Positions 7,711-64,000 of a DNA stretch of 64,000 nt are shown here, one piece after another. The notes beneath the pieces were generated by a model. It had not been told where the DNA came from. It searched no databases and saw nothing but the letters and a program-made list of their open reading frames with translations. Made by a program: the position numbers and the translations under genes. The DNA comes from a candidate division WOR-3 bacterium (lineage in GTDB: Bacteria > Hydrothermota > Tepidihabitantia > Tepidihabitantales > JBDRVQ01). Within the stretch, counting starts at the first letter, position 1. Every line of letters begins with the position of its first letter. The stretch is taken from contig JBDRVQ010000002.1 in NCBI GenBank assembly GCA_039801905.1, forward strand, positions 3,147-67,146, read 5' to 3'.

Positions 7711-7738
7711 ATAATAATAAAATATTAGAGATAGTCAA
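7711..7738 (-). promoter_or_regulatory. Candidate proximal sigma70-type promoter for the gcv operon (TTGACT-16-TATTAT, 12 nt before the ATG)
   Basis: Minus-strand read: ccTTGACTatctctaatattttatTATTATtaaaaattaaagATG. The DNA is AT-rich, so a chance match is possible. Confidence 0.35.
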
Positions 7739-7959: not shown

Positions 7960-8234
7960 ATCCAGATTAGGCTCCCATTTTTACTTAGGATTAAAGCCTT
8001 AGTTAAACACAGGATTAAACTCTTTATTATCCCTTCTATTAAACTCTGAATTAGACTTCCAATTATGCCCTCTTTTAGAGTATCTATTAAATCCTCAATT
8101 AAACCCTTTATTAAATCTCCGATTAAGTCTAAAATTATACCTTTTCTTAGACCTTATATTATGCCTTTCATTAAATCCCTGATACCATCCCCTGTATGCT
8201 ACACCCCTTTTTATAAAAATAAACCCCTCCTGTT
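7960..8234 (-). repeat. Composite intergenic element, copy 1: ~50-bp conserved core (8181-8234) plus ~220-bp array of ~12-bp-phased YTAAT(T) repeats (7963-8180)
   Basis: Core GATACCATCCCCTGTATGCTACACCCCTTTTTATAAAAATAAACCCCTCCTGTT on plus is the reverse complement of the core seen at 24419-24471 and 56503-56553, and is identical in orientation to 41098-41152. The array has TAAT/ATTAA motifs every 11-13 bp. Confidence 0.85.
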
Positions 8235-8359
8235 TGATAAAGTTCCTATTATTTAATGACATTTTAAGTTAACTATTAATTACCCGATAATACCTCCTTA
8301 ATCTCTCTTCTGATATAAGGGTTGGGATTAGAACCCAATAACTTACCTTAATAACTTCT

Positions 8360-8470
8360 TTTAACTTCTTCATAGCCCTCTATAATAAATACGGAAATAC
8401 CCCCCAATTTCTGACACTAAATTTCCCCCCTTTTTTATAAGTCTTTGATTTATAATAACTTATTTACTTT
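8360..8470. repeat. Second conserved intergenic module shared with 41215-41330
   Basis: CATAGCCCTCTATAATAAATACGGAAATACCCCCCAATTTCTGACAC is shared between the two loci. Flanking TACCCGATAA and CTTTGATTT..AACTTATTT also match. Confidence 0.7.
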
Positions 8471-8611
8471 AATGGAACTTAAAAAAATAATGTACTGCTT
8501 AGAGAGATTGTGAGAAATGTCCGGATTAATCGGCCTCATACATTTTTGAGTATTCTTAGAGATAAACCCCTAAAGTGGTAATAATCACTGTTTAACGCTT
8601 GCAGGAACATT

Positions 8612-8639: not shown

Positions 8640-8669
8640 TTATATAATACGGAATGAGAATTAGAGAAT

Positions 8670-10553
8670 TTGACGGCAAAAATAGGGTATGATAGCCAAA
8701 TCTTCTATTTTTTTCCTCCTTTCTTTTCTTTTCTTTTTGGTCAAACGCTTCCCAAAACCCAACACTGGTGGGAAGCAGAGAGGCACCGAAAGGAAGTAGA
8801 AGAAAGACAACCTTCGTCTATAATCAAACCGAGTCCATTGCGACTAAGGAAATTACCATCAATCACGCGGGAAATTTATGGCTATAACCCATACTGGGTT
8901 GATGAACGCTGGTTTCACTACGATTTATTAACTCGCATCGGTCTATTTGATGTGACTCTGGAACCAGATGGTTCAATCACCAATGCCCATAACTTTCCCG
9001 GTCGTTGGGCAAGAGTGATTGACCGGGCGCACCGCAATGGTGTGAAGTGCGAAATGGTGGCAACCTGTTTTGGCTGGTGGAATATTCACCAAGCAATCCG
9101 GGCTCCAGCCGCCATTCCTAATTTAGTAGCGTTGGCGGAATCGTCCGGAGTAGACGGAATTAATATTGATTTTGAAGATATTTTAAGTTCGGACCGCGAT
9201 ACAGTAGTCCTTTTTATGCAAAGGCTATCCGCCGCGTGCTGGGCTTCTGGCCTGGAATTGACGATGGCAACGATGCCCTTAGATTTCGCCAACGCCTATG
9301 ATTTCCGGGCGCTTGCCGAAACCACCGATGGTCTTTTTATTATGGGCTACAACTTCCACTGGCAAAGTTGTCCAGAGGCAGGACCAGTTGCCCCGCTCTT
9401 TGGCTGGGAATATTACGGAAATTTGCAAATGACCCTAAATGAATACCTGAACGAAATTGGCAACGGAAGAAAACTTTATTTAGGGGTGCCTTACTATGGT
9501 TTTCAGTGGCCAACCTTAGCGGAGACCACCCATTCTCGAACTTCTGGTCCGGGTGAGGTAATTTACTACGCAGAGGCGTCAAACCGGGCAAGAGAATATG
9601 GTTACCTCTGGGATGAGGAATCCCAGACACCTTGGTACCGATTTCACAGCGGGGTCTGGAATCAGGGTTGGTTTGACGATGATTCCAGTCTCTTTCTTAA
9701 ATACCAAGAAGTCCACGAACACGATCTCTTAGGCGCCGGTATTTGGGCGCTCGGCTATGATGGTCCTCGTCGAGAACTTTGGGCAACGCTGCGCGAGAGC
9801 TTTAACCGACCGCAGGAAGATTTCACTAACGGTGATTGTGAAATTTGGCAACTTGATACATCGGCAGTACCCAGCGATACCAGTCCGAATCCTTTAGGCT
9901 GGTATGAGGGGCGTAAAGCCCAATACCGACGCGAGACAGAAATCGTGCGAACCGGGAGCGCAAGCATTCGTCACATCCCGGATTCTCTCGGTTATCCTTG
10001 GCCGGTCACTTCCAGACTATTTCAGGATGTATTGGTGACACCCGGTCTTTTCTATGAGTTCTCCGGCTGGTCTTATAAGAATGACCACCGGGGTAACCGG
10101 ACTTATCTTCTTCTCCAGTGGTTTGACTCCACCCATAGGGTAATTGGCAGTGTCTCTTCCCAAGTGCTCAGTACCGACAGCGCTTCTTGGCGCTTTTTGA
10201 CCACCGGCCGGGTTATTGCTCCTTCCCATTCCCAATTCGCCCGCCTCTCCCCTTTAATTGAAGGCTGGGGCGGTGCGGACTTTTGGGACGACTTAGACTT
10301 CAGTCCGGGTAATAAGATTGAAGAAACAACCAGTCTTGATACCTGGGTTTTAAATCTCCCCACAGTTGTTCACCACAATTTAAGAATGCCCCTAATTAAA
10401 AGTAATTACCGAGTAGAACTTTTAAGCGCCACCGGTCAAAAGGTGATGGATTTGTCACCTGGTGGCAACAATATTTCCTTCCTACCAGCAGGCATCTATT
10501 TTATAAAAATCAATCCCGGAAACATCGCCAAAAAAATAATTTTAGCAGAATAG
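8670..10553 (+). CDS. Glycoside hydrolase family 18 (chitinase-like) protein with C-terminal T9SS sorting domain
   Basis: VDGINIDFEDI matches the GH18 DxxDxDxE catalytic motif. C-terminus ..NISFLPAGIYFIKINPGNIAKKIILAE is a Por/T9SS-CTD-like tail. The start and frame near 8670-8800 are uncertain (see findings). Confidence 0.65.
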   Translation: MTAKIGYDSQIFYFFPPFFSFLFGQTLPKTQHWWEAERHRKEVEERQPSSIIKPSPLRLRKLPSITREIYGYNPYWVDERWFHYDLLTRIGLFDVTLEPDGSITNAHNFPGRWARVIDRAHRNGVKCEMVATCFGWWNIHQAIRAPAAIPNLVALAESSGVDGINIDFEDILSSDRDTVVLFMQRLSAACWASGLELTMATMPLDFANAYDFRALAETTDGLFIMGYNFHWQSCPEAGPVAPLFGWEYYGNLQMTLNEYLNEIGNGRKLYLGVPYYGFQWPTLAETTHSRTSGPGEVIYYAEASNRAREYGYLWDEESQTPWYRFHSGVWNQGWFDDDSSLFLKYQEVHEHDLLGAGIWALGYDGPRRELWATLRESFNRPQEDFTNGDCEIWQLDTSAVPSDTSPNPLGWYEGRKAQYRRETEIVRTGSASIRHIPDSLGYPWPVTSRLFQDVLVTPGLFYEFSGWSYKNDHRGNRTYLLLQWFDSTHRVIGSVSSQVLSTDSASWRFLTTGRVIAPSHSQFARLSPLIEGWGGADFWDDLDFSPGNKIEETTSLDTWVLNLPTVVHHNLRMPLIKSNYRVELLSATGQKVMDLSPGGNNISFLPAGIYFIKINPGNIAKKIILAE

Positions 10554-22747: not shown

Positions 22748-24271
22748 TTATTTTAACTTCAACAACTTTTTTACCCGAGAGCCATTAAAAGATAGGAAAT
22801 AAATACCCGATGCCGTTCTTCTTCCGAAGGAATCTTTTCCGTCCCAGAAGAGCCGGTAGGTCCCGGCTTTCCCTCTTTTCCCAATTAACTCCCTGACCAG
22901 CCGGCCGTTTCCATCATAAATAGAAAACTTTACCTCCGATTCCCGGGAAAGAGAATAAAAGATAGAAATCGTCTGCGAAGTTGGATTAGGAAAGATAAGA
23001 AACCTTTCTCCGACGGTCGCAAGCGAATTCTTTTCTTTAATGGAAACAAAAGGCGTTGGTAAGTAATGGTAACCCAAATCAATCCTATCCGTATCATAAA
23101 CCGTATCACTTCTTGTTGTCCAACGGTGAATTAGAGAATCAAGATTCAAGGGAGAGGTCATCAAAAGAGTATCACCAGCATCAACACAAGGACTCTCTTC
23201 CGGTTGCCCAGCAGCAATCTGACTTAAATAATACTCACCAGAAGGTCCCGAAACAAATAAGGGGTCAAGAGAAAAAGCATGCGGTCCGGGTCGGCAGGCA
23301 TAATAATTATTCGGTAGATTTCCCCAAACATCGTTATAGTCAAAAATTAAAGTATCAAGAGTATCCGGTTGACAAGCAATCCCTCCCCCATAAGGAACAA
23401 TACCCGTAGCGATATTTCCCACAATGATATTATTCTTAATCACCGAACTCTTACTGCTTTTCACATAAATCGCTCCCCCATAAGGGATTGCTGTGGAACA
23501 CATATTGGCAAAAAAGGTATTATTAAAAACCAAAGCATTTGCCGAATCAATATACAAGGCACCACCATAAGCAAAACCACCAGTTGTCGCCCCAGCCCGA
23601 TTCCGCACAAAGAGATTGGAAAAGACAACCGGCATCCCCCCAATCAAACACAAAGCACCACCATACCAAAAACCACCACCCGCCGTATCAGCAATCACAT
23701 TCTCCAAAAAATAATTCTGATAAAAAACTCCCGAACCCGTACAATAGATACCACCGCCGTAACGCCAACCACCACCACCCGGACGCTCAATCTTATTCTG
23801 AGCGATTAAATTATAAGCAAAAGTTGGTGAGCCATCCGCATAAACCCCACCACCATAACCAAGAGCAGTAACAGTATTACCAACAATCCGATTCTCAAAA
23901 AATGTTGGACTTCCCCGACAGAAAATGCCCCCTCCGTAACCATAAAGACCACTCACCCGACCATTAGTAATAGTAAAACCGCGAATTACAGTAGCCGGCG
24001 TATAAACCATCGCATTCATCGTGATCACCCGAGCGGTATCGTTACCGTTAATAATCGTTACCTCCTGACCACCTTCACTCAAAAGCACAATCCTATCCCG
24101 GTTGGGCCAAAGGATATTCTCATAATAAATCCCCGGTGCCACCAAAACGGTATCACCACTCAAAGCCCCGTTCAATCCGGATTGAATCGTAAGCGAATCC
24201 CCCGGTACCCGAATCACGCGGGGATAGAGAAAAGAAAAGAAGAAAAAAAGAAAAAGAGATAACCTCTTCAT
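22748..24271 (-). CDS. Secreted right-handed beta-helix repeat protein with T9SS C-terminal sorting domain
   Basis: Signal peptide MKRLSLFLFFFFSFLYP, many YGGGI/YGGA turns, and a C-terminal ..GIYFLSFNGSRVKKLLKLK tail. Paralog of 32353-33903. Confidence 0.6.
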   Translation of the reverse strand: MKRLSLFLFFFFSFLYPRVIRVPGDSLTIQSGLNGALSGDTVLVAPGIYYENILWPNRDRIVLLSEGGQEVTIINGNDTARVITMNAMVYTPATVIRGFTITNGRVSGLYGYGGGIFCRGSPTFFENRIVGNTVTALGYGGGVYADGSPTFAYNLIAQNKIERPGGGGWRYGGGIYCTGSGVFYQNYFLENVIADTAGGGFWYGGALCLIGGMPVVFSNLFVRNRAGATTGGFAYGGALYIDSANALVFNNTFFANMCSTAIPYGGAIYVKSSKSSVIKNNIIVGNIATGIVPYGGGIACQPDTLDTLIFDYNDVWGNLPNNYYACRPGPHAFSLDPLFVSGPSGEYYLSQIAAGQPEESPCVDAGDTLLMTSPLNLDSLIHRWTTRSDTVYDTDRIDLGYHYLPTPFVSIKEKNSLATVGERFLIFPNPTSQTISIFYSLSRESEVKFSIYDGNGRLVRELIGKRGKAGTYRLFWDGKDSFGRRTASGIYFLSFNGSRVKKLLKLK

Positions 24272-24348
24272 TTTCCCTCCAACGCCTTTCTCTAAGACCC
24301 AAATTATACAAAGTTCACCAAAATAGTCAAATGGCGAGATAGATTATA

Positions 24349-24377
24349 GTTGACATTTCCCAAAAATCACCTATAAT
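24349..24377 (+). promoter_or_regulatory. Consensus sigma70 promoter TTGACA-17-TATAAT, 41 bp upstream of repeat-element core copy 2
   Basis: gTTGACAtttcccaaaaatcaccTATAATat. Both hexamers are perfect with a 17-bp spacer. Confidence 0.6.
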
Positions 24378-24418
24378 ATAATAAAAAAGAAGAGCAAAAG
24401 AATTTGATTAAATCCGAA

Positions 24419-24728
24419 AAGGGAGGGGTTTATTTTTATAAAAAGGGGTGTAGCATACAGGGGATGGTATCGGAGACCTAATTTTTAGCCTAATTGGGGC
24501 TCTAATAAATACCTTAAACCTTCGCTTAATCCACCTATTAAATAAAGGTTTAATCACCATATAAAATGGGGGTTTAATCCCTATAATAATGGAAGGCTTA
24601 ATCCGAAACCTAATTCCCTACCTAATCCCAGTGCTAACCAAGAATCTAATTGAGTAAATAATCTTCCGCCTAATTCTATCTCTTATTAATAGATTAATCC
24701 AGAGAGTAAAAGAAAGAGTAAGTTGACT
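24419..24728 (+). repeat. Composite intergenic element, copy 2: core 24419-24471, TAAT array ~24472-24700, ending at a TTGACT -35 box (24723-24728)
   Basis: Core AGGGAGGGGTTTATTTTTATAAAAAGGGGTGTAGCATACAGGGGATGGTATC. The array has YTAAT every 11-13 bp. Confidence 0.85.
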
Positions 24729-24756
24729 TCTCTCCTTTTTCTTTTACTCTTACTCT

Positions 24757-25392
24757 ATGAATCAATATAAAGAATTACTCAAAGAAATTGCCCCTTATAA
24801 TCTCCACCGAATGAAACTTAATCCGAAAAAAGCCTGCCTCTTAGTTATTGATATGCAGAATGATTTCTTAACCCCAGGTTCTGAGGTCTATATTCCAGAA
24901 GGAGAGGCAATTATCCCCAATATCAAAAAACTCCTTACTCTCTTCCGAAAGAAAAGATTACCCGTAATTTATACTGCCCACGTTCACAAAAACCCAAAAG
25001 TTGATGGTGGGATGACTGCGGAATGGTGGCCCGAATTAAAGGCGGGTCGGGTATTAAAAGCCGGGAGTAAAGGGGCGGAGATTCACCCAGCACTAAAACC
25101 AAAGGATGAGTTAGTTATTTATAAACATCGCTACTCCGCTTTTTATAATACTAATTTAGAAATCTGCCTTCGGGGTTTAAAAGTAACGGATTTGGTCATT
25201 ACCGGGGTGATGACGAATATCTGTTGTGAATCAACTGCTCGGGATGCCTTCTTTCGGGACTTTCGGGTATTCTTCTTAGCCGATGCCACCGCCAGCCCTT
25301 TTCCTGAACTCCATCTTGCTACCTTAAAGAATTTAGCCTATGCCTTCGCTTACATCACAACCACCGAAGAGATTATCCAAGTAATAAAATAA
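24757..25392 (+). CDS. Isochorismatase-family hydrolase (nicotinamidase-like)
   Basis: CLLVIDMQNDFLTPGS..LPVIYTAHVH..ITGVMTNICCESTARDA. Confidence 0.7.
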   Translation: MNQYKELLKEIAPYNLHRMKLNPKKACLLVIDMQNDFLTPGSEVYIPEGEAIIPNIKKLLTLFRKKRLPVIYTAHVHKNPKVDGGMTAEWWPELKAGRVLKAGSKGAEIHPALKPKDELVIYKHRYSAFYNTNLEICLRGLKVTDLVITGVMTNICCESTARDAFFRDFRVFFLADATASPFPELHLATLKNLAYAFAYITTTEEIIQVIK

Positions 25393-36981: not shown

Positions 36982-37030
36982 ATTGTAAAATGCGCTCTTG
37001 ACAGAAAACCATATCCCTTTATAATAAGGG

Positions 37031-40813: not shown

Positions 40814-40843
40814 TAAATATACCAAACTCTAATCCCCTGTCAA
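40814..40843 (-). promoter_or_regulatory. Candidate promoter TTGACA-18-TATTTA, 3 nt upstream of the FTCD ATG, directly abutting the end of repeat-array copy 3
   Basis: Minus read: ..gagaaaagTTGACAggggattagagtttggtaTATTTAcccATGcgaaaaattgtggaatgt. Confidence 0.4.
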
Positions 40844-40859: not shown

Positions 40860-41152
40860 AAAGCACTTCGCTTTGCTCCGAGATTTCACTCCCGATTAGA
40901 CTTTTAATTAGTCTTCCAATTAAACCTCTCATTAGGCTCCTCATTACATCCCGGCTTAGACTTCCCTTTATTTCCCCGATTACCCTTTGCTTTACTCCCA
41001 AGGTTAAACTTGGGATTAGGCAAAAGATTAGGCTATTTATTAGACTAATTATTATTCTATCAATTATTCTTCTAATTAGTCCTCAAATTAAACCCCCGAT
41101 ACCATCCCCTGTATGCTACACCCCTTTTTATAAAAATAAAACCCTCCTGTTT
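40860..41152 (-). repeat. Composite intergenic element, copy 3: core 41098-41152 plus ATTAG/ATTAA array 40860-41097
   Basis: The core is identical in orientation and sequence to copy 1. The array has repeats every ~12 bp. Confidence 0.85.
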
Positions 41153-41214: not shown

Positions 41215-41330
41215 TTATTCATATTCATAGCCCTCTATAATAAATACGGAAATACCCCCCAATTTCTGACACCAAATCTTCCCCTTTTCTCTAACCCTTT
41301 GATTTTTAAGAACTTATTTTTGGGATTTCT
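41215..41330. repeat. Second conserved module, copy matching 8360-8470
   Basis: The 47-mer CATAGCCCTCTATAATAAATACGGAAATACCCCCCAATTTCTGACAC is shared between the two loci. Confidence 0.7.
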
Positions 41331-41348
41331 AAATAATAATGCTCATGT

Positions 41349-43493: not shown

Positions 43494-44800
43494 TGTTTAA
43501 GAAAATTCTCATCGCCAACCGGGGAGAGATTGCGGTACGGATCATCCGAACCTGTCGGGAATTGGGGATTAAAACCTGCCTCGTCTATTCTGAGGCGGAT
43601 AAAGAAAGTCTACCGGTAAAATTGGCGGATGAGGCGATCTGCATTGGGAAATCACACCCGAAGGAGAGTTATCTTTTACTCTCCCGTATCCTCTCCGCGG
43701 TGGAAATCTCTGGGAGCGATGCCCTCCATCCCGGTTATGGTTTTTTAGCGGAAAATGCGGATTTGGTGGAAGCCTGTCAGGAAATGAAGATTACCTTTAT
43801 TGGTCCCCCTCCCCAATTCCTCCGCCTTTTTGCGGACAAACTCGCAGCGAAAAAGAAAATGGCGGAAATTGGCATCCCGGTTATTCCGGGAAGTGATGTC
43901 TTAAAGGATGAAGAGGAGGCAAAGGCAAAAGCAAAGGAGATTGGCTACCCCGTGATTCTGAAAGCCTGCGCTGGTGGCGGAGGCAAAGGGATGAAGATTG
44001 TCCGTGAGGAAAAGGAGATGGCTTCCTCCTTTCAAAGAGCAACCGCCGAGGCGAATAGTGCCTTTGAGGACCCCAGAATTTATTTAGAAAAATTATTCAC
44101 CCAATTCCGCCATATTGAAGTCCAAATCCTCGCCGATAATTACGGTAACTGCCTCTTCTTCCCAGAGAGGAACTGCACAATCCAAAAAAATTTCCAAAAG
44201 GTGATTGAGGAAACACCTTCTCCGGGAATAAAAAACGAAGATAGGGATTTACTCCAAAGATTAGTTAAATCCCTTGTCGTCAAGACCGGTTACCAAAATG
44301 TTGGGACAATGGAATTTCTGGAAGTGGACGGTAATTTTTATTTTATGGAAATCAATACCCGAATCCAGGTTGAGCATCCGATAAGTGAAGAGGCCTCCGG
44401 GGTTGATATCATAAAGAACCAAATTCTAATCTCTGCGGGCGAAAGGTTTGAGGAAAAAACCTATGAGCCTCTATTTTGGTCAATGGAAGCCCGGGTTACG
44501 GGGAAAAATCAAGGGAAGATAAATCTTCTCCTTTTGCCGGGTGGTCCTTTTGTCCGTATTGATACCCACATTTATCAAGGTTATAATTTTTCTACCATCT
44601 ACGACCAACTCCTTTTGAAACTGATCGTCCGGGGTAAAGACCGAGAAGAGACGAGGAGGAGAATGGTGCGTGCCCTATCGGAATTAAAAGTTGAAGGAAT
44701 TGAAACTAATCAGGAAGAGTTAGTTAAAATTTTAGAAAGCGAGAGATTCCGCCAGGGTGATTACAAGATTGACTACTATGATTCTCAATCTTTATTCTAG
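43490..44800 (+). CDS. accC: Biotin carboxylase (ATP-grasp)
   Basis: MFKKILIANRGEIAVRIIRTCRELGI..GGGGKGM..EMNTRIQVEHP. Confidence 0.85.
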   Translation: MMFKKILIANRGEIAVRIIRTCRELGIKTCLVYSEADKESLPVKLADEAICIGKSHPKESYLLLSRILSAVEISGSDALHPGYGFLAENADLVEACQEMKITFIGPPPQFLRLFADKLAAKKKMAEIGIPVIPGSDVLKDEEEAKAKAKEIGYPVILKACAGGGGKGMKIVREEKEMASSFQRATAEANSAFEDPRIYLEKLFTQFRHIEVQILADNYGNCLFFPERNCTIQKNFQKVIEETPSPGIKNEDRDLLQRLVKSLVVKTGYQNVGTMEFLEVDGNFYFMEINTRIQVEHPISEEASGVDIIKNQILISAGERFEEKTYEPLFWSMEARVTGKNQGKINLLLLPGGPFVRIDTHIYQGYNFSTIYDQLLLKLIVRGKDREETRRRMVRALSELKVEGIETNQEELVKILESERFRQGDYKIDYYDSQSLF

Positions 44801-53477: not shown

Positions 53478-53588
53478 AAGATTATAAGGGAAAATTAAAA
53501 TTTTTCAACTTAGTGATAAGATTTAACCAGAACTCACCGCGAATAGTTGCCTTGACAAACGAATATTTTTTTTCATATAATTTTAATT

Positions 53589-55928
53589 ATGGAAAATAGG
53601 GAGGTAGCAATGCTTAAATCTCTCTCTATATTTTTCTTATTTTTTCTTGCCTTCGGGGCAAAAGATATTAGTCTTCCGAGCGAACAACCAATAAATCTCC
53701 AAACGCCTGAGACCGACCAAATATCTATTCCCCTTCTCTTAAACTATCAAGGTAAAATTACCGATAATATAGGTAATCCCGTTCGGGACTCTTCCTATTC
53801 CGTAACCTTTCGCTTATTTAATGTCCCTTCGGGGGGAACTGCTTTCTGGAATGAAACCCAGACCATTCAGACCCGAGCCGGTCTCTTCCATACCCTTTTA
53901 GGTAGTGTCACGCCAATCCCTTCTTTACCCCTTGATGGCAACTTATATTTAGAGATGCAGGTCAATCCCAATCCGGCAATGACGCCAAGAGTTAGAATTG
54001 TGAGTTCCGCCTATTCTTATATCGCAAGAAAGTCGGATAGCACAAATTACTTAAATCAGATGGGTGCTTCTACGGGACAGGTCTTAAAATGGAACGGAAC
54101 AACCTGGGCGCCGGGAAACGATGAAGTTGGTGGTGATAATGCTTGGGTGAGAGGAACACCGGATTCGGTCCTTTACACAATAAGGCGATTGGGTATTGCC
54201 CGTGGCGGTTCTAATAATATGCTTTACGGTTCTTATCGGTATACCCATACTAACTTAGGGGTTAGTTGCACTACCGGAACATCAGGGCAGAATTATTATT
54301 ATTGCACGGTTGGCGGTGGGATAAGTAATAAGGCGAGCGGCAATTGGGCAACAGTTAGCGGTGGTGGTTATAATACAGCGAGTATGGCTCAATCAACGGT
54401 TGGGGGCGGTTATTTTAATACGGCAAGTGGTGATTATGCCGTGATTGGTGGTGGAGTGAGTAACCGAGCGAGTGGCTATTCTTCCAGCATTACAGGTGGT
54501 TATAATAATACCGCAACCGCCGACTACGCCACAGTGGCTGGTGGTTATTGCGACTCAGCAAAAGGTAAATATGCAGGTGCCCTTTCTGGCTATCACAATG
54601 TAGCAGGAAGTGCGCTTGGTGATAGTGGAGCGGTGGTCGCGGGTGGTTATAATAACAACGCGAGGAGCATCTATACATTTATTGGCGGCGGTAGAAATAA
54701 CGCCACACTCAATAGTGGAGCGACAGTGAGCGGGGGCATAGGTAATGTCGCAAGCGGTAATCTCGCTACAATTGGTGGTGGCCAAGAAAATTTCGCCAGT
54801 AACTATTACACAACGGTAAGCGGCGGCTTCGGTGATACCGCCACCGGGTATTTAGCAACAATTGCTGGCGGAAGAGGGAATATTGCGAGTGGCAATTACT
54901 CAACGGTTAGCGGTGGTGTTTGGAATCGGGCATTTGGTAATTACGCGACGGTTTCCGGTGGTGACCGGAATATAGCAAACGGTAACTACGTCACAATTGG
55001 CGGTGGCGGCGGAAATAGAGCCAGCGTCAATTATTCGACAGTGGGCGGCGGGTATGAGAACTTTGCCGATAGTTCCTATGCGACAATTGGGGGTGGAAAT
55101 CAAAATCTCGCGCCTCGGGTTTATGCCACAATTGGTGGCGGAAGTGAGAATTTTGCCAATGGTCCTTATGCGACGATTGGTGGCGGATGGAAAAATTGGG
55201 CAACTGGCGACCTTGCTACAATTGGCGGTGGCTACGGAAATATGGCGAGTATTGATTACGCAACAGTTGCTGGTGGATATTGTGATACTTCCGCCGGTCC
55301 ATCAAGTTTCACAACCAATTCCCACTCCGTAGTCTATTTTATTTATGGCAACTCCGCTGCCTTTAATGGCCAGGCCGCAACCGCCTCCAATCAACTTCGC
55401 TGCGGCACACTTTCCAAAGCCGGTGGAAGTTTTACCATTGACCATCCCCTTGATCCATATAATAAAATCCTGAACCACTACTTCATTGAAGGACCGGAGA
55501 TGCTCAATATCTATCGGGGCAGTGTTGTCCTTGATGCCTCAGGCAGAGCGGAGGTGAGACTGCCTGATTACTTCTCCGCCCTGAACCGAAATCCACACAT
55601 CCAGTTGACCGGTGTTGGCTCTTCTGATGTCTATGTTGCCGAAGATATTAAAGGCAACGTCTTTGTCATTGGCGGTAAGCCGAGAACAAAAGTCTACTGG
55701 CTTGTAACCGGTGAACGGCAGGATATCTCAGCCGAGGCAATAAGAAGGTTAATGCCCGTTGAACAACCAAAGATTGGTGAACTTAAAGGAAGGATGCTTG
55801 ATGACGACTTCCTTGTTGGCTGTATGGAGCAGTTGGAGCGAGAAGGAAAGGCAAGTGGCATTGATTTCCGAACCGCAGCAGGGAGAAACAGGTATCAAGA
55901 TACGAAAAGGAGGATGAAAGGTGAATAA
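53589..55928 (+). CDS. Secreted protein with ~20 tandem ~20-aa Gly-rich beta-roll repeats (YadA-head/tail-fibre-like, consensus N-Y-ATIGGG--N-A-G) and a C-terminal 'IDHPLDP' tail-fibre-like domain
   Basis: Signal peptide MLKSLSIFFLFFLAFG; repeat region aa ~230-560; C-terminus ..GGSFTIDHPLDPYNKILNHYFIEGPEMLNIYRG... I could not run a family search. Confidence 0.5.
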   Translation: MENREVAMLKSLSIFFLFFLAFGAKDISLPSEQPINLQTPETDQISIPLLLNYQGKITDNIGNPVRDSSYSVTFRLFNVPSGGTAFWNETQTIQTRAGLFHTLLGSVTPIPSLPLDGNLYLEMQVNPNPAMTPRVRIVSSAYSYIARKSDSTNYLNQMGASTGQVLKWNGTTWAPGNDEVGGDNAWVRGTPDSVLYTIRRLGIARGGSNNMLYGSYRYTHTNLGVSCTTGTSGQNYYYCTVGGGISNKASGNWATVSGGGYNTASMAQSTVGGGYFNTASGDYAVIGGGVSNRASGYSSSITGGYNNTATADYATVAGGYCDSAKGKYAGALSGYHNVAGSALGDSGAVVAGGYNNNARSIYTFIGGGRNNATLNSGATVSGGIGNVASGNLATIGGGQENFASNYYTTVSGGFGDTATGYLATIAGGRGNIASGNYSTVSGGVWNRAFGNYATVSGGDRNIANGNYVTIGGGGGNRASVNYSTVGGGYENFADSSYATIGGGNQNLAPRVYATIGGGSENFANGPYATIGGGWKNWATGDLATIGGGYGNMASIDYATVAGGYCDTSAGPSSFTTNSHSVVYFIYGNSAAFNGQAATASNQLRCGTLSKAGGSFTIDHPLDPYNKILNHYFIEGPEMLNIYRGSVVLDASGRAEVRLPDYFSALNRNPHIQLTGVGSSDVYVAEDIKGNVFVIGGKPRTKVYWLVTGERQDISAEAIRRLMPVEQPKIGELKGRMLDDDFLVGCMEQLEREGKASGIDFRTAAGRNRYQDTKRRMKGE

Positions 55929-56431: not shown

Positions 56432-56460
56432 TTGACAAATTATAAGTATTAGTTTATAAT
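56432..56460 (+). promoter_or_regulatory. Consensus sigma70 promoter TTGACA-17-TATAAT, 42 bp upstream of repeat-element core copy 4
   Basis: gTTGACAaattataagtattagttTATAATt. Confidence 0.6.
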
Positions 56461-56502: not shown

Positions 56503-56790
56503 AGGGAGAGTTTATTTTTATAAAAAGGGGTGTAGCATACAGGGGATGGCATCCGGGGTCTAAATAGGGGTTTAATAAGAAGGATAATAGAAAGTCTAAT
56601 TAAGGGGATAATAGAGACTCTAATAGAAGATATAATATAATGGTTAATAGAGGTGGTAATTGGGTGGTTAATTGGGAGTCTAACCTAAGGTCTAATGATA
56701 ACCCTAATTGGAACAATAACCGAAGGTCTAATTGCGAGACTAATTGAGAAAATAACTGAGGGCTTAATAAAGTTAATCTCCGGATTGACT
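56503..56790 (+). repeat. Composite intergenic element, copy 4: core 56503-56553, TAAT array ~56554-56784, ending at TTGACT (56785-56790) of a TTGACT-16-TAGAAT proximal promoter
   Basis: Core GAAGGGAGAGTTTATTTTTATAAAAAGGGGTGTAGCATACAGGGGATGGCATC. The array has GKYYTAAT units. Confidence 0.85.
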
Positions 56791-56838
56791 TTTTTTAATA
56801 GTTTGATAGAATAAAGGTTAAGAAAAAGAGGAGTTATT

Positions 56839-60999: not shown

Positions 61000-61037
61000 T
61001 ATCTAAAATAAAAAAGGCGGGAGGATTTCCTCCCGCC
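61000..61037 (-). terminator. Rho-independent terminator for the 61057-64000 gene
   Basis: Minus-strand read: GGCGGGAGG-aaat-CCTCCCGCC followed by TTTTTTATTTT. Confidence 0.7.
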
Positions 61038-61056
61038 TCTCCTCTTACCCTTCGGG

Positions 61057-64000
61057 CTACTTCACAACGATTAACTTTCTATCTTCTTTGTATCCGCCTG
61101 AGGCGGATTCAAACCGTAAGAGATAGATTCCGGCCGGTAGTTTCTTTATCGTAAACTCACCCTTATCGCTCTTTGCAGAGTAAACCAAGTTGCCTAAGGT
61201 GTTATAGACTTTGAGAATCGCAACTTCTTTCTTCGGCAGGTTGTAGTAAACCTTGGTTAAGCCTTTGGTCGGATTGGAGTTAATCTGGATAAAAGTCTTA
61301 CGACTTAATTCCTGGGTCCCAATATTCGATGAAGGAAGGGCTAAAGTTAAATCTTCACCGGTATACTTCCAGATAGAAAGGGTATTATTTCCCTTTAAGG
61401 CATAGATTGTGCCATCGGTCCAAGTGCAGAGTCCACCACCACCCTTCACATATTTCTTATCTGGCATCTTGGGGATTGTCTCTAAGCCTGCCCATTTGGT
61501 CGTTGGGTCAAATGACCAGAACTCTTTGGTATTATTTCCCTTGAAGGCATAAATCTTACCGCTCTTTAAGGTCATTGCCGCACCTTCGCCAACTTTCTTC
61601 TTCTTATTCCACATTGGATGAGTGAAAGGCATTCCGGAATCCTTTTCCCAGGTATTAGCCGAGATGTCATACTTGTAGAACTCATTATACTTACCCCTTA
61701 AAGCATAGAGGGTATTATCATCATAGGCGATTAAACAAGAGCCATCGCTATAACCTTTACCGATATAAGTGCCTTCTGGTGCTTTTGGTAGAGTCTCAAT
61801 CCAAGTGTTATTGGTGCAGTCAAAGGCATAAAACTCATTGGTCTTTGAACCCTTTAAGAGATAGACAAAACCATTAACATAAGCCATTCCCGTGCCACCT
61901 TTCAGAGCCTTGCCACCACCCGCTGGAATTGGTGGTAATGATTCCCAAGCGTTAGTTTCGGTATCATAGCGCCAGAACTGTAGGGTATTTGTGCCAGAAG
62001 CAAAGTAGAGGTATTTTGTGCCGTCATAGACCATACCGGTTCCTTTCTTCACTCCTTTCTTACCCGCAATTGGCACCGAATCCAGTTGCGTTATGGCATT
62101 CTCTGGAATAAAGGAGTAGAAATCTTTCGTATTATTTCCCTTCACAATGTAGATCTTATTCCCACCGGAAACAATCAGACCACCGGATTTAATTCTTTTG
62201 TTTGACGGCGCAAGGGGTAAGTCAGAAACTTTTACCCAAGCAGTGGTGGGAATTTTCGGACGGACATTAACGATTTTCCTTTGACAATCATTCTCCGGTT
62301 GGACATCGCCATTAAGCATCGTTGAACATTGGGCAAGGAAATCACCAACCTTCTCCGGTAGCCAGAGGTCAAAATCAATGATTGTTTCCAAATCCGGAGA
62401 TAGCGAAGAAATCTCTCTCATACTGTAATAATCGCTAATTTGGAAAATGACGCCAAAAGAAGCAGGTTCGGAACCAAAGTTCTTTATCTTGGCTTTTGGC
62501 GTCATTGCCATTCCGGAATCCACAGTATCAGAAGGGGCAAGAATTTCTATCACCCCAACATCTAAAACCCGAACATATACCGAACCGATAATTTTATCAT
62601 TTTCCTGCCTCTGGTCACCAAAAAGTTGGGTCGTGCATTTGACCGAAATTTCGCCTGCTGGTTCGGCGGTCCAATCGGAGAAAGAGATAATTCTCTCTTC
62701 ATCGGGCAAAAGTTCCGAAACGACCATTTCTGCGGCATAATCGCCAATCAAAAGGAAGGTGTTAAAAGATACAGGAGTGTTGCCAAAATTTTTCACCTTG
62801 ATCTGCGGGGTAATGACCGAGCCGAGGTCAATGGTATCAATTGGGGCTAAAATCTCAATTGGGGAAACATCTAAAACTTGGACAAATACCGAATCAATTT
62901 TTTTATCGTTTCCGGGTTGATTGTCACCGGATAGTTCGGTTGTGCAGGTGACCGCAATCTTTCCCCGCGGACTCGCAAACCAGTTGGGAAAGGTTAAATA
63001 CCGATAGGTAAGAGGGGTGTGATTAATAACCGTCGCCGTGTAGTTATAATCTATGCCAATCTTCATCCGCACCGTATAAGTTTCTACGGTATTGCCATAA
63101 TTATAAACCGAACAAGCCGGTGTGATAACCGTTCCGGAGTCAATTATCCCAGTGGGCATTAAAATCTTTGTGCAGCCAACATCCTTTATCCCGATCCTTC
63201 TCACCTCAACTGACCCGGTCTGCCGGTCATTACTTAGCACCATATCATTAGAAAGTCGGGTGGAACAACTTACCAAATGGGTACCCAGTTGGTTGGCATT
63301 CCAAACCGGAAAGGTTAGATAAATCTTAGTTAATGGCTGATGATTAGAAACCGTAGCCGTTTGGTCATAAAATGTGCCAATCTTCATTCGCACCGTGTAA
63401 TTTTCTGTTGTGCCACCGAAATTATAAACAGTGCAAGCGGGGGTGATAATAATTCCTGAGTCCAAAACACCCGTTGGTGAAGAAATGGCAATTACCCCAA
63501 CATCGTGTAAAACAATGGGATTGGAGCCGATGGTGATAGAAAAGTTTACCGCCTGGGTCATCGTCTGGCCATCGTTTAAATAAGTTAGTTCTAACCTTAA
63601 AGGGATATTTCTCCCGGGCTCGGCTTGGGGTAAGCAATAGAAACGGAATTGATTGGTTCGGTTATCCGTAGAATCTCTCCTTCGGCATCTGGGGAAAGAC
63701 TTAATACTATCAAGAACGATAACCATTGGGTCAAGGGATTTCAATTTACCGCTAACGGCATAGGCAGAATCCAAGGGATGGATTGCCCGATTCCTTACTC
63801 GGAACCAGACTGAAGCGGTTTCTCCGGGGTCCAATTGTAAAGTTCGGTTGCCATTTAGGGAATCGTTAATAAAAACTTGCCTGGGCTCAAAGAAGACACC
63901 GGCAATGCGTGTTAGATATAAATTATTAGGACGATTCCGGCGACACTCATTATGAATATAAGCCGAATCATTCCAACCCTGCCAGAAATCCAAGGAACAC
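61057..64000 (-). CDS. Large secreted protein: tandem CARDB-like Ig domains plus Kelch-type beta-propeller repeats plus T9SS C-terminal sorting domain. The N-terminus probably runs off the window end
   Basis: About 100-aa repeats (..VLDVGVIEILAPSDTVDSG..PKAKIKNFGSEPASF..). Kelch-like repeats (..IYALKGNNT..FWSYD..TNAWE..). C-terminal ..KLPAGIYLLRFESASGGYKEDRKLIVVK tail. The track start at 63993 abuts the window end, so the true N-terminus may lie beyond it. Confidence 0.6.
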   Translation of the reverse strand, partial: CSLDFWQGWNDSAYIHNECRRNRPNNLYLTRIAGVFFEPRQVFINDSLNGNRTLQLDPGETASVWFRVRNRAIHPLDSAYAVSGKLKSLDPMVIVLDSIKSFPRCRRRDSTDNRTNQFRFYCLPQAEPGRNIPLRLELTYLNDGQTMTQAVNFSITIGSNPIVLHDVGVIAISSPTGVLDSGIIITPACTVYNFGGTTENYTVRMKIGTFYDQTATVSNHQPLTKIYLTFPVWNANQLGTHLVSCSTRLSNDMVLSNDRQTGSVEVRRIGIKDVGCTKILMPTGIIDSGTVITPACSVYNYGNTVETYTVRMKIGIDYNYTATVINHTPLTYRYLTFPNWFASPRGKIAVTCTTELSGDNQPGNDKKIDSVFVQVLDVSPIEILAPIDTIDLGSVITPQIKVKNFGNTPVSFNTFLLIGDYAAEMVVSELLPDEERIISFSDWTAEPAGEISVKCTTQLFGDQRQENDKIIGSVYVRVLDVGVIEILAPSDTVDSGMAMTPKAKIKNFGSEPASFGVIFQISDYYSMREISSLSPDLETIIDFDLWLPEKVGDFLAQCSTMLNGDVQPENDCQRKIVNVRPKIPTTAWVKVSDLPLAPSNKRIKSGGLIVSGGNKIYIVKGNNTKDFYSFIPENAITQLDSVPIAGKKGVKKGTGMVYDGTKYLYFASGTNTLQFWRYDTETNAWESLPPIPAGGGKALKGGTGMAYVNGFVYLLKGSKTNEFYAFDCTNNTWIETLPKAPEGTYIGKGYSDGSCLIAYDDNTLYALRGKYNEFYKYDISANTWEKDSGMPFTHPMWNKKKKVGEGAAMTLKSGKIYAFKGNNTKEFWSFDPTTKWAGLETIPKMPDKKYVKGGGGLCTWTDGTIYALKGNNTLSIWKYTGEDLTLALPSSNIGTQELSRKTFIQINSNPTKGLTKVYYNLPKKEVAILKVYNTLGNLVYSAKSDKGEFTIKKLPAGIYLLRFESASGGYKEDRKLIVVK

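Follow-up and report, generated by a model that had tools for sequence, protein, structure and literature searches.

Four copies of an interspersed, non-coding mosaic element, each consisting of a conserved G-tract core joined to a strictly phased array of 12-nucleotide (nt) units, lie within the 64-kb stretch of DNA analysed here (the window), which comes from a hot-spring bacterium of candidate division WOR-3 (GenBank assembly GCA_039801905.1, contig JBDRVQ010000002.1, positions 3,147 to 67,146 of the forward strand). The element is restricted to one thermophilic WOR-3 lineage, and sequence comparisons point to purifying selection on the motif and the register of its resident copies, with the spacers evolving neutrally. 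The family is real and statistically solid and, as far as we can tell, undescribed, no description of such a dodecamer or of a WOR-3 repeat element having been found in the literature searched. The explanation tentatively preferred is that the transcript of the element acts as a platform for an oligomeric protein.

The core and the phased array

An identical 39-mer, CCATCCCCTGTATGCTACACCCCTTTTTATAAAAATAAA, occurs at exactly four sites in the window, two on each strand (8185-8223 and 41102-41140 on the plus strand, 24429-24467 and 56511-56549 on the minus strand), and at none in 100 shuffles. One flank of every core is occupied by an array of 18-19 units of 12 nt each (216-228 bp) in register with the core, which confirms the four-copy composite proposed when the letters alone had been read (the sequence-only reading). 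The phased TAAT array described at that time also stands, but not its dimensions, a period of 11-13 bp and 18-20 units over 220-280 bp, since the period is exactly 12 and both the units and the length are fewer. The cores and arrays are as follows, the strand being that of the element.

7966..8181, minus strand: copy 1 array, 18 units of 12 nt, ATTA plus 8 variable positions on the plus strand, in core register
8182..8235, minus strand: copy 1 core, ATACCATCCCCTGTATGCTACACCCCTTTTTATAAAAATAAACCCCTCC, with conserved G-tracts on the opposite, core-to-array strand
40883..41098, minus strand: copy 2 array, 18 units
41099..41152, minus strand: copy 2 core
24419..24470, plus strand: copy 3 core
24471..24698, plus strand: copy 3 array, 19 units
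56503..56552, plus strand: copy 4 core
56553..56768, plus strand: copy 4 array, 18 units

Printed in 12-nt register from the core, all four copies run through their 18-19 units without an indel, and in all four arrays the distance from one ATTA to another is exactly 12, 24 or 36 bp, with zero drift. An exact ATTA stands at 13-14 of 18 phased positions in each array, against a background maximum of 3-4 elsewhere in the window on both strands, and a phase scan of both strands found neither a further array nor one lacking a core in the 64 kb. Conservation of the motif over 72 units is 78% at A1, 100% at T2, 99% at T3 and 96% at A4, and unit positions 5-12 are nearly free, with a weak C/Y preference at positions 7-10. 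The 8-nt spacers of different copies are 26-41% alike in register, as against 28-43% when offset by one unit, and because the in-register likeness does not rise above the shifted one the copies have only the unit consensus in common, together with an identical core. The 12-nt phase runs on into the core itself (ATAC.., GTAT.., CCTT.., AATA..), the core-to-array strand of which carries G-tracts in the arrangement GGAGGGG-N16-GGGG-N9-11-GGGG; their conservation suggests that a G-quadruplex may form there. The core is also found in the metagenome-assembled genome (MAG) JBDRVU01, and the window proteins are identical in MAGs JBDRVO01, JBDRVR01 and CBFGIZ01. A number of resemblances noticed by eye alone (the DnaA box TTATCCACA, IHF sites, Fur hexamers, -10 elements, boxA and rut) involved a minority of the units or a single species, and none was adopted.

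Selection on the motif and its spacing

A sister species (PlsX identity 93%, L160) has copy 4 at the orthologous site. Between the two species 3 of 72 motif positions differ (4%), compared with 40 of 144 spacer positions (28%) and 171 of 882 fourfold-degenerate sites taken from five flanking genes (19%). By Fisher's test the motif is set apart both from the spacers (p = 2e-5) and from the fourfold sites (p = 4e-4), and spacer divergence is modestly higher than that of the fourfold sites (p = 0.03). There are no indels over the 216 bp of this array, the promoter hexamers are unchanged (12/12) and the core is nearly so, its two differences falling at the outer G-rich end. Among nine paralogous copies in a related organism, that of Ga0129301/Ga0209102, the mean pairwise difference is 0.04-0.11 in the five motif positions (CTATT) and 0.05 in the core, and 0.20-0.38 over the seven spacer positions, with a monotonic rise after the motif and no 3-nt periodicity. 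No array variants were seen across population MAGs.

As judged from these comparisons, the motif and register of the resident copy are under purifying selection and the spacers are neutral, a pattern that excludes a decaying repeat, concerted evolution and hypermutation. Concerted evolution of the minisatellite type was also rejected on the grounds that only 4-5 of 12 positions are homogenised and that the unit number is constant, and hypermutation of the spacers on the lack of population variants and the merely modest excess of spacer divergence over the fourfold rate. The binding array suggested by the sequence-only reading is in keeping with such selection on motif and spacing; one motif would be bound per 12 nt, cooperatively and probably from the core outward.

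Non-coding nature of the array

That the array does not encode protein, as had been stated, is borne out by stop codons in every frame in at least three of the four copies. A decayed or unusual protein-coding repeat with a period of four residues, or a guide array of the CRISPR or TIGR kind, is close to excluded, although the period is a multiple of three, indels are lacking and one open frame passes through copy 2 and through the L131/L139 arrays. Those open frames lie on pyrimidine-rich strands, on which stop codons are rare by composition, the third positions of the supposed codons are invariant and the variability is not 3-nt periodic, and a coding repeat was accordingly rejected. The earlier judgement that the array is not CRISPR-like is also upheld, with only 4-5 nt conserved in each 12-nt unit, spacers of 7-8 nt that drift neutrally and no match within the element to CRISPR direct repeats or to any other Rfam family, either at gathering thresholds or at E < 5. 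CRISPR repeats, by contrast, are near-identical over ~23-50 nt and alternate with unique spacers of comparable length. Instead of the spacer turnover or acquisition at one end that marks CRISPR arrays, only point substitutions separate the orthologous arrays of the window and the sister species, whose 18 units and their order are unchanged. TIGR-Tas arrays, which Faure et al. reportedly described in 2025, are said to consist of ~36-nt tandem units with two spacers beside a Nop-domain Tas gene. Such an array was rejected here on the 12-nt period and on the genes that neighbour the four copies, namely those for GcvT, GH18, FTCD, isochorismatase, a beta-helix protein, L32 and PlsX.

A long structured 5' leader, another of the earlier suggestions, has to be abandoned together with a riboswitch. 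The fold z-scores of the four putative transcripts against shuffles (+0.26, +0.61, +1.11 and -1.46) indicate no excess folding, no covariation-supported structure was found on either strand in nine aligned copies (the covariation term was positive on both), and host promoters lie downstream of the array, whereas a structured leader would lie between promoter and start codon.

Short and long forms, element promoters and hairpins

The element exists in two forms in the window. The short form (copies 3 and 4, ~330 bp) consists of a consensus sigma-70 promoter, ~45 nt, the 50-nt G-tract core and 18 units of 12 nt. The long form (copies 1 and 2, ~500 bp) shares this core and array but, where the short form has its promoter, bears a linker and a further conserved segment, box 2; box 2 of copy 1 (8369-8492) and box 2 of copy 2 (41224-41344), each ~110 nt, are 94% identical over 65 nt. 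The parts outside the core and array are listed below.

8236..8368, minus strand: copy 1 linker, core to box 2, variable, containing AAGGAGGTATTATCGGGTA, which is common with copy 2
8369..8492, minus strand: copy 1 box 2, homologous to part of a 150-nt block in the related organism and to L163
41153..41344, minus strand: copy 2 linker and box 2, terminating at the stop codon of the upstream 148-aa gene
24350..24377, plus strand: copy 3 element promoter, 12/12 consensus TTGACA-16-TATAAT, directed at the core
56432..56460, plus strand: copy 4 element promoter, 12/12 TTGACA-17-TATAAT, beginning 1 nt past the stop codon of the upstream gene
24702..24751, plus strand: copy 3 hairpin, 17 bp, directly after the array, overlapping the putative isochorismatase promoter
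56770..56805, plus strand: copy 4 hairpin, 10 bp, A/U-rich and followed by U7, terminator-like, at the distal array end, overlapping the rpmF -35

Element promoters that match the consensus at 12/12 positions, 42-45 nt from the core and aimed from core to array, are present in copies 3 and 4, in the sister species (L160) and in L001 and L002, and there are only five perfect 12/12 sigma-70 promoters in the whole window. A hairpin with a U-run, or a long hairpin, directly past the array was found in copies 4 and 3, L164, L141, L148 and array 2 of L139.

Occurrence among relatives

WOR-3 relatives were graded by the identity of their FTCD, PlsX and GcvT homologues. The FTCD locus is without the element in relatives of 91% and 86% identity, and because ~25 bp separate the upstream gene's stop codon from the conserved FTCD promoter in L128, copy 2 can be seen to fill the entire intergenic space as an indel of ~500 bp. 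The 86% relative (L284) retains the same promoter at its gcvT locus, where the element is lacking over 1 kb. Arrays lie beside the 3D-domain gene of the related organism, whose FTCD identity is 80%. An exact 21-mer core scan of metagenomes gave no match. A degenerate core pattern revealed ~9 distinct further copies in the related organism and one in a third organism, and a phase scan revealed one more (L164); the related organism has at least ten copies.

The design in the related organism is alike. Its arrays have 17-19 units, again of 12 nt, and its core (ATACCATCCC..CTGTAGC.CTCCCCC..AAAAATCCCCTCC) is homologous; the linker comes in two variants, and the conserved block, ~150 nt long, ends sharply on its outer side. 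It is the phased motif that differs: the related organism has AATAG (CTATT on the other strand), one array has GTAAG, and the third organism has ATAGCA/ATACCA. The window's box 2 shows homology to a portion of this 150-nt block, and also to a remnant that L163 carries, with no array, ahead of its rpmF gene. In that relative (79% PlsX identity) a core-like sequence and a box 2 homologue occupy 9300-9650 upstream of rpmF with no array, in an orientation opposite to that of window copy 4 at the same rpmF locus.

Several individual loci show further variation. Three tandem arrays with distinct consensuses lie at 4540-5270 of L139, the first short and of the AATAG type, the second GTAAGG/GATAGA with a 6-nt sub-period and the third AATAG, and the core of the middle array is shortened and diverged. 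A variant linker between core and block, with five tandem 7-nt repeats ACGCYYT, occurs at ~10240-10290 of L148 and ~400-450 of L152. A full related element at 13496-13960 of L164/L165 stands just ahead of an 85-aa gene, beyond which come cas6, a HEPN gene and the csm operon of a type III-A system; no CRISPR array was seen in this 20-kb locus. Copy 3 in MAG JBDRVU01 is 94% conserved over its array, core and promoter (L002 690-790 versus window 24271-24420), but a different gene lies beyond the promoter, so that a rearrangement breakpoint adjoins the element. Matches to the degenerate core pattern in the unrelated metagenome contigs L144, L146, L149, L153 and L156 were due to chance; these contigs have in common a conserved stretch of ~150 nt with C/G-tracts, followed by (GTGAGT)n, and have no 12-nt array.

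Such a distribution invites the view that the element is a purely selfish repeat, akin to miniature inverted-repeat transposable elements (MITEs) or bacterial interspersed mosaic elements (BIMEs), in which core, block and motifs would be mobilisation sites for a transposase or recombinase and the upstream position a target preference with no host function. It is patchy among close relatives, there being 0 arrays in ~122 kb from four related organisms and 4 in the 64 kb of the window; there are relatives in which the orthologous site at FTCD, gcvT or rpmF is empty; it is multi-copy; there is a synteny break beside the core in L002; and its make-up is mosaic, with short, long and array-less variants. 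The view is nevertheless considered unlikely. Resident copies have kept motif, register, core and promoter across a species split, unlike dead transposon copies. No terminal inverted repeats are common to the copies, whose two ends are unrelated in the nine-copy alignment. No target-site duplication was seen at the filled and empty FTCD, rpmF and gcvT sites, where the intergenic DNA of the relatives is too diverged for short duplications to show. No transposase is linked to any copy, the only one, beside L001, being a degenerate 61-aa fragment. The MITE-like character once proposed therefore survives as regards a short, non-coding, multi-copy element with interspersed presence and absence among relatives, but not as regards terminal inverted repeats.

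A phage or plasmid origin was rejected, as there was no blastn match to plasmids or phages and the core pattern was absent from viral contigs. Pattern scans of viral contigs (TTA x8 and CTATT x6) yielded only ordinary tandem or coding repeats among the matches listed and are useless as a family search. Phased arrays of other kinds do occur, among them thirteen 12-bp units ATTA-N4-ATCA with variable middles at ~8650-8830 on the minus strand of the viral contig L040, and 24-bp units (TTAAT...GGGG) in L026 and L044.

Downstream genes and host promoters

The order core, array, gene start holds in all four window copies. In the related organism 7 of 8 copies have the array end towards a gene start, and with the window copies included the count is 11 of 12 (p = 0.003), so that the constant orientation to the following gene that had been claimed is sustained; the side bearing the block faces a gene start in 8 of 11. 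Pfam assignments of the flanking genes (GcvT, FTCD, isochorismatase with an IorA-like protein, L32-PlsX) uphold the identities given earlier, that is gcvT, isochorismatase-iorAB, FTCD and rpmF-plsX. The supposed specificity for metabolic operons, by contrast, is lost, as the downstream genes of the related organism are diverse: asparaginase, OmpA-family proteins, a CCA/poly(A) polymerase operon, an Fe-S/CCG protein, a zinc-ribbon protein and the cas6/csm operon. Each of the four downstream genes of the window has its own promoter, placed after the array and before the start codon, and at least two of these genes are predicted to give leaderless mRNAs.

7711..7738, minus strand: gcvT host promoter, TTGACT-16-TATTAT, kept in the element-less relative L284
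40816..40843, minus strand: FTCD host promoter, TTGACA-16-TATATT, ATG 5 nt after the -10, leaderless, also in the element-less L127 and L128
24723/24745, plus strand: putative isochorismatase host promoter, TTGACT-16-TACTCT, 6 nt before the ATG at 24757
56785..56812, plus strand: rpmF host promoter, TTGACT-16-TAGAAT with TG, also in relatives without an array there, L163 and L164

The rpmF proximal promoter is ancestral, and the element lies directly upstream of its -35. Over copies 2, 3 and 4, L141 and L142 taken as a set, the distances from the last phased motif to the host -35 are 16, 39, 24, 47 and 20 bp, and the array of copy 1 is ~220 bp from the gcvT promoter. Helical phasing of the array to the host -35 was rejected because these distances are not phased. 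Also rejected was a glycine riboswitch ahead of gcvT, since the 220 nt that separate array 1 from the gcvT promoter gave no Rfam match and are homologous to a gene remnant in L284. Canonical sigma-70 promoters with a -10 ending 5-7 nt before the start were noted at 36998-37025, 53552-53581, 40816-40843 (minus strand) and 24723-24759 of the window, and leaderless mRNAs seem to be common here (FTCD, a 3D-domain protein, a 779-aa repeat protein and isochorismatase).

It might be supposed that the element is a mobile promoter with a long 5' leader, the element promoter driving the operon and an unstructured A/U- and purine-rich leader tuning stability or translation. Every copy has promoter, core, array and gene running in one direction, copy 3 has no convincing terminator and a weak host promoter (TACTCT as -10), and several GGAG-like stretches can be picked out in the transcript by eye. 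This must be rated quite improbable in view of the host promoters between array and start codon, which are ancestral for rpmF, FTCD and gcvT and two of which give leaderless mRNAs, and in view of the hairpin and U7 before the gene in copy 4. In addition the exact 12-nt register and the constant number of units are left unexplained, and the array of the related organism is pyrimidine-rich in the same sense. Both the selfish element and the promoter with leader explain less than the two readings considered next.

A proposed platform of RNA or of DNA

The reading favoured, albeit with well under even confidence, takes the transcript as the substrate: an unstructured non-coding RNA forming a multivalent platform for an oligomeric protein that is nucleated at the core. 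Copies would have been inserted immediately upstream of host promoters, and transcription from the strong promoter of the element itself, through core and then array, would yield an RNA ending at the hairpin or U-tract just before the -35 of the next gene. On this RNA an oligomeric protein would assemble, or would be sequestered by the array, beginning at the conserved core and proceeding with one protomer per 12 nt, a logic like that of TRAP on a larger scale. The transcript is preferred because of the conserved 12/12 promoter, the transcription-unit-like polarity bias, the strand-biased and structure-poor sequence and the terminator-like ends. The co-orientation of element and gene in 11 of 12 cases is what would be expected if antisense read-out were selected against, and the design recurs, with ~18 units, a 12-nt period and a homologous core, in two further organisms in which the motif has changed. 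That the array RNA would be single-stranded is suggested by spacers whose composition is biased between the strands and by the lack of predicted structure in the arrays.

A number of considerations tell against the RNA reading. No recognisable sigma-70 promoter is present in the long-form copies 1 and 2 or in the copies of the related organism, the terminator-like hairpins could be host terminators of the upstream genes, and the strand bias of the spacers runs one way in the window species and the other way in the L139 arrays. Strong selection on each copy is easier to understand for a role in cis than for an RNA acting in trans from many copies, and strict spacing and a site directly upstream of -35 boxes would fit an array on double-stranded DNA equally well. 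No candidate binding protein was found among the window open reading frames (ORFs) scanned, which comprised the flanking genes of the four copies and ten more.

An array acting at the level of DNA is nearly as likely as the RNA platform. Here a sequence-specific DNA-binding protein would nucleate at the core and polymerise over ~18 phased sites, at 12 bp per protomer and winding around the helix, just upstream of the host promoter, which it would activate, silence or insulate. The indel-free spacing and the selected motif are as expected, the distal end comes to within 16-47 bp of the -35 hexamer in copies 2, 3 and 4, L141 and L142, selection on single copies at orthologous loci suggests a role in cis, one linker variant (that with five ACGCYYT repeats) holds a second, short-period array, and no promoter can be recognised in the long forms. 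On the other hand, a 12/12 promoter reading through core and array, conserved between species in the short forms, is needless for a pure DNA site; the distances from last motif to -35 are unphased and the array of copy 1 is remote from its promoter; strand-biased spacer composition is unexpected for a duplex site; and the 12-bp period is off the helical repeat.

The element may, at odds well below even, represent a new class of bacterial nucleoprotein platform in which the G-tract core nucleates an oligomer that adds a protomer per 12 nt along ~18 motifs, on a highly expressed, unstructured RNA or on displaced or duplex DNA, with the motif co-evolving with its reader between species (ATTA, AATAG and ATAGCA replacing one another) and with copies transposed to promoter-upstream sites, where each is kept by selection.

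Comparison with known systems

The logic of the element is closest to that of TRAP sites, and to that of arrays of iterons or weak DnaA boxes on which assembly starts from a strong site. TRAP is an 11-mer ring around which the Bacillus trp leader wraps 11 (G/U)AG triplets set 2-3 nt apart, and the likeness lies in very short motifs on single-stranded RNA, held at a fixed distance by spacers of unconstrained sequence and recognised by a homo-oligomer at one motif per protomer. The WOR-3 element differs in its period of 12 rather than 5 nt, its ~18 units, its conserved nucleating core and its multi-copy, apparently mobile nature; the RNA level would apply here by inference, and no TRAP-like protein was identified. 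Sponge small RNAs (CsrB/RsmZ for CsrA, CrcZ for Hfq) are also similar, being ~300-400 nt long with their own strong promoter and terminator and ~6-22 short motifs, but these GGA or A-rich motifs sit in hairpin loops at irregular spacing, whereas the array has exact spacing and no predicted structure, and the element has many genomic copies at different loci. A CsrB/RsmZ-type RNA was rejected for want of an Rfam match at E < 5 and because the motif is UAAU or CUAUU, not GGA.

Iteron centromeres and operators (the 11-bp repeats of R1 parC, the 12-bp repeats of tubC, the omega heptads) and the weak DnaA boxes of oriC resemble the array in having direct repeats of fixed period and a cooperative, polymerising DNA-binding reader, often at promoters, and at oriC assembly nucleates from a strong end site. 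A DNA-level array would thus resemble omega, ParR or TubR on iterons, or DnaA on weak boxes beside a strong one. However, these systems have 4-12 well-conserved units and are single-copy, beside par/rep genes or at oriC, whereas the WOR-3 arrays have 18 units with only 4-5 conserved bases and are dispersed on the chromosome, some with a consensus promoter. No par/rep genes lie beside any of the ~14 copies.

Like the BIMEs of E. coli, the BOX elements of pneumococci and the Correia elements of Neisseria, the element is multi-copy, non-coding, intergenic and lineage-restricted, with mosaic variants and with presence and absence between relatives, and those elements too can carry promoters or protein-binding sites. 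It differs from them in having neither palindromic repetitive extragenic palindrome (REP) units nor terminal inverted repeats, in its strictly phased 12-nt array module with a 4-5-nt motif under selection, and in its position at 5' ends, upstream of -35 boxes, and not at 3' ends. A REP/BIME assignment was rejected on the absence of excess folding and on the array ends facing gene starts in 11 of 12 cases, whereas REP sequences are imperfect palindromes of 20-40 nt that form stem-loops, mostly at the 3' ends of genes.

Interspersed bacterial repeats are usually taken to be selfish or structural, and the present module has an unusually clean functional signature in that 4-5-nt motifs and exact spacing are kept over ~18 units between neutral spacers, three species agree in the number of units, and the motif changes from one species to another. 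This signature predicts a specific reader protein and an ordered assembly ~216 nt long, in a thermophilic phylum that is uncultured and about whose regulatory biology hardly anything is known. The array itself offers a route to the reader, through phylogenetic profiling against array presence and pulldown with a defined array, and poses the question of whether host promoters can receive such a regulatory platform ready-made from a mobile element.

Other features of the window

A fluoride-riboswitch-like match at 44005-44071 (plus strand) scored 23 bits, against a gathering threshold of 34, lies inside an ORF and is probably spurious. Sub-threshold Rfam matches to CsrC/Ysr186, HrrF and mir-483 at 61006-61198 (minus strand) fall at the 3' end of a 978-aa gene and probably reflect a structured terminator. 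The 779-aa protein already mentioned (ORF 53589-55928) has no Pfam match and contains at least nine 45-bp (15-residue) tandem repeats at 54310-55286, and the only dense cluster of single-nucleotide polymorphisms between population MAGs falls within the same gene, immediately beyond the repeats (L003 55496-55568).

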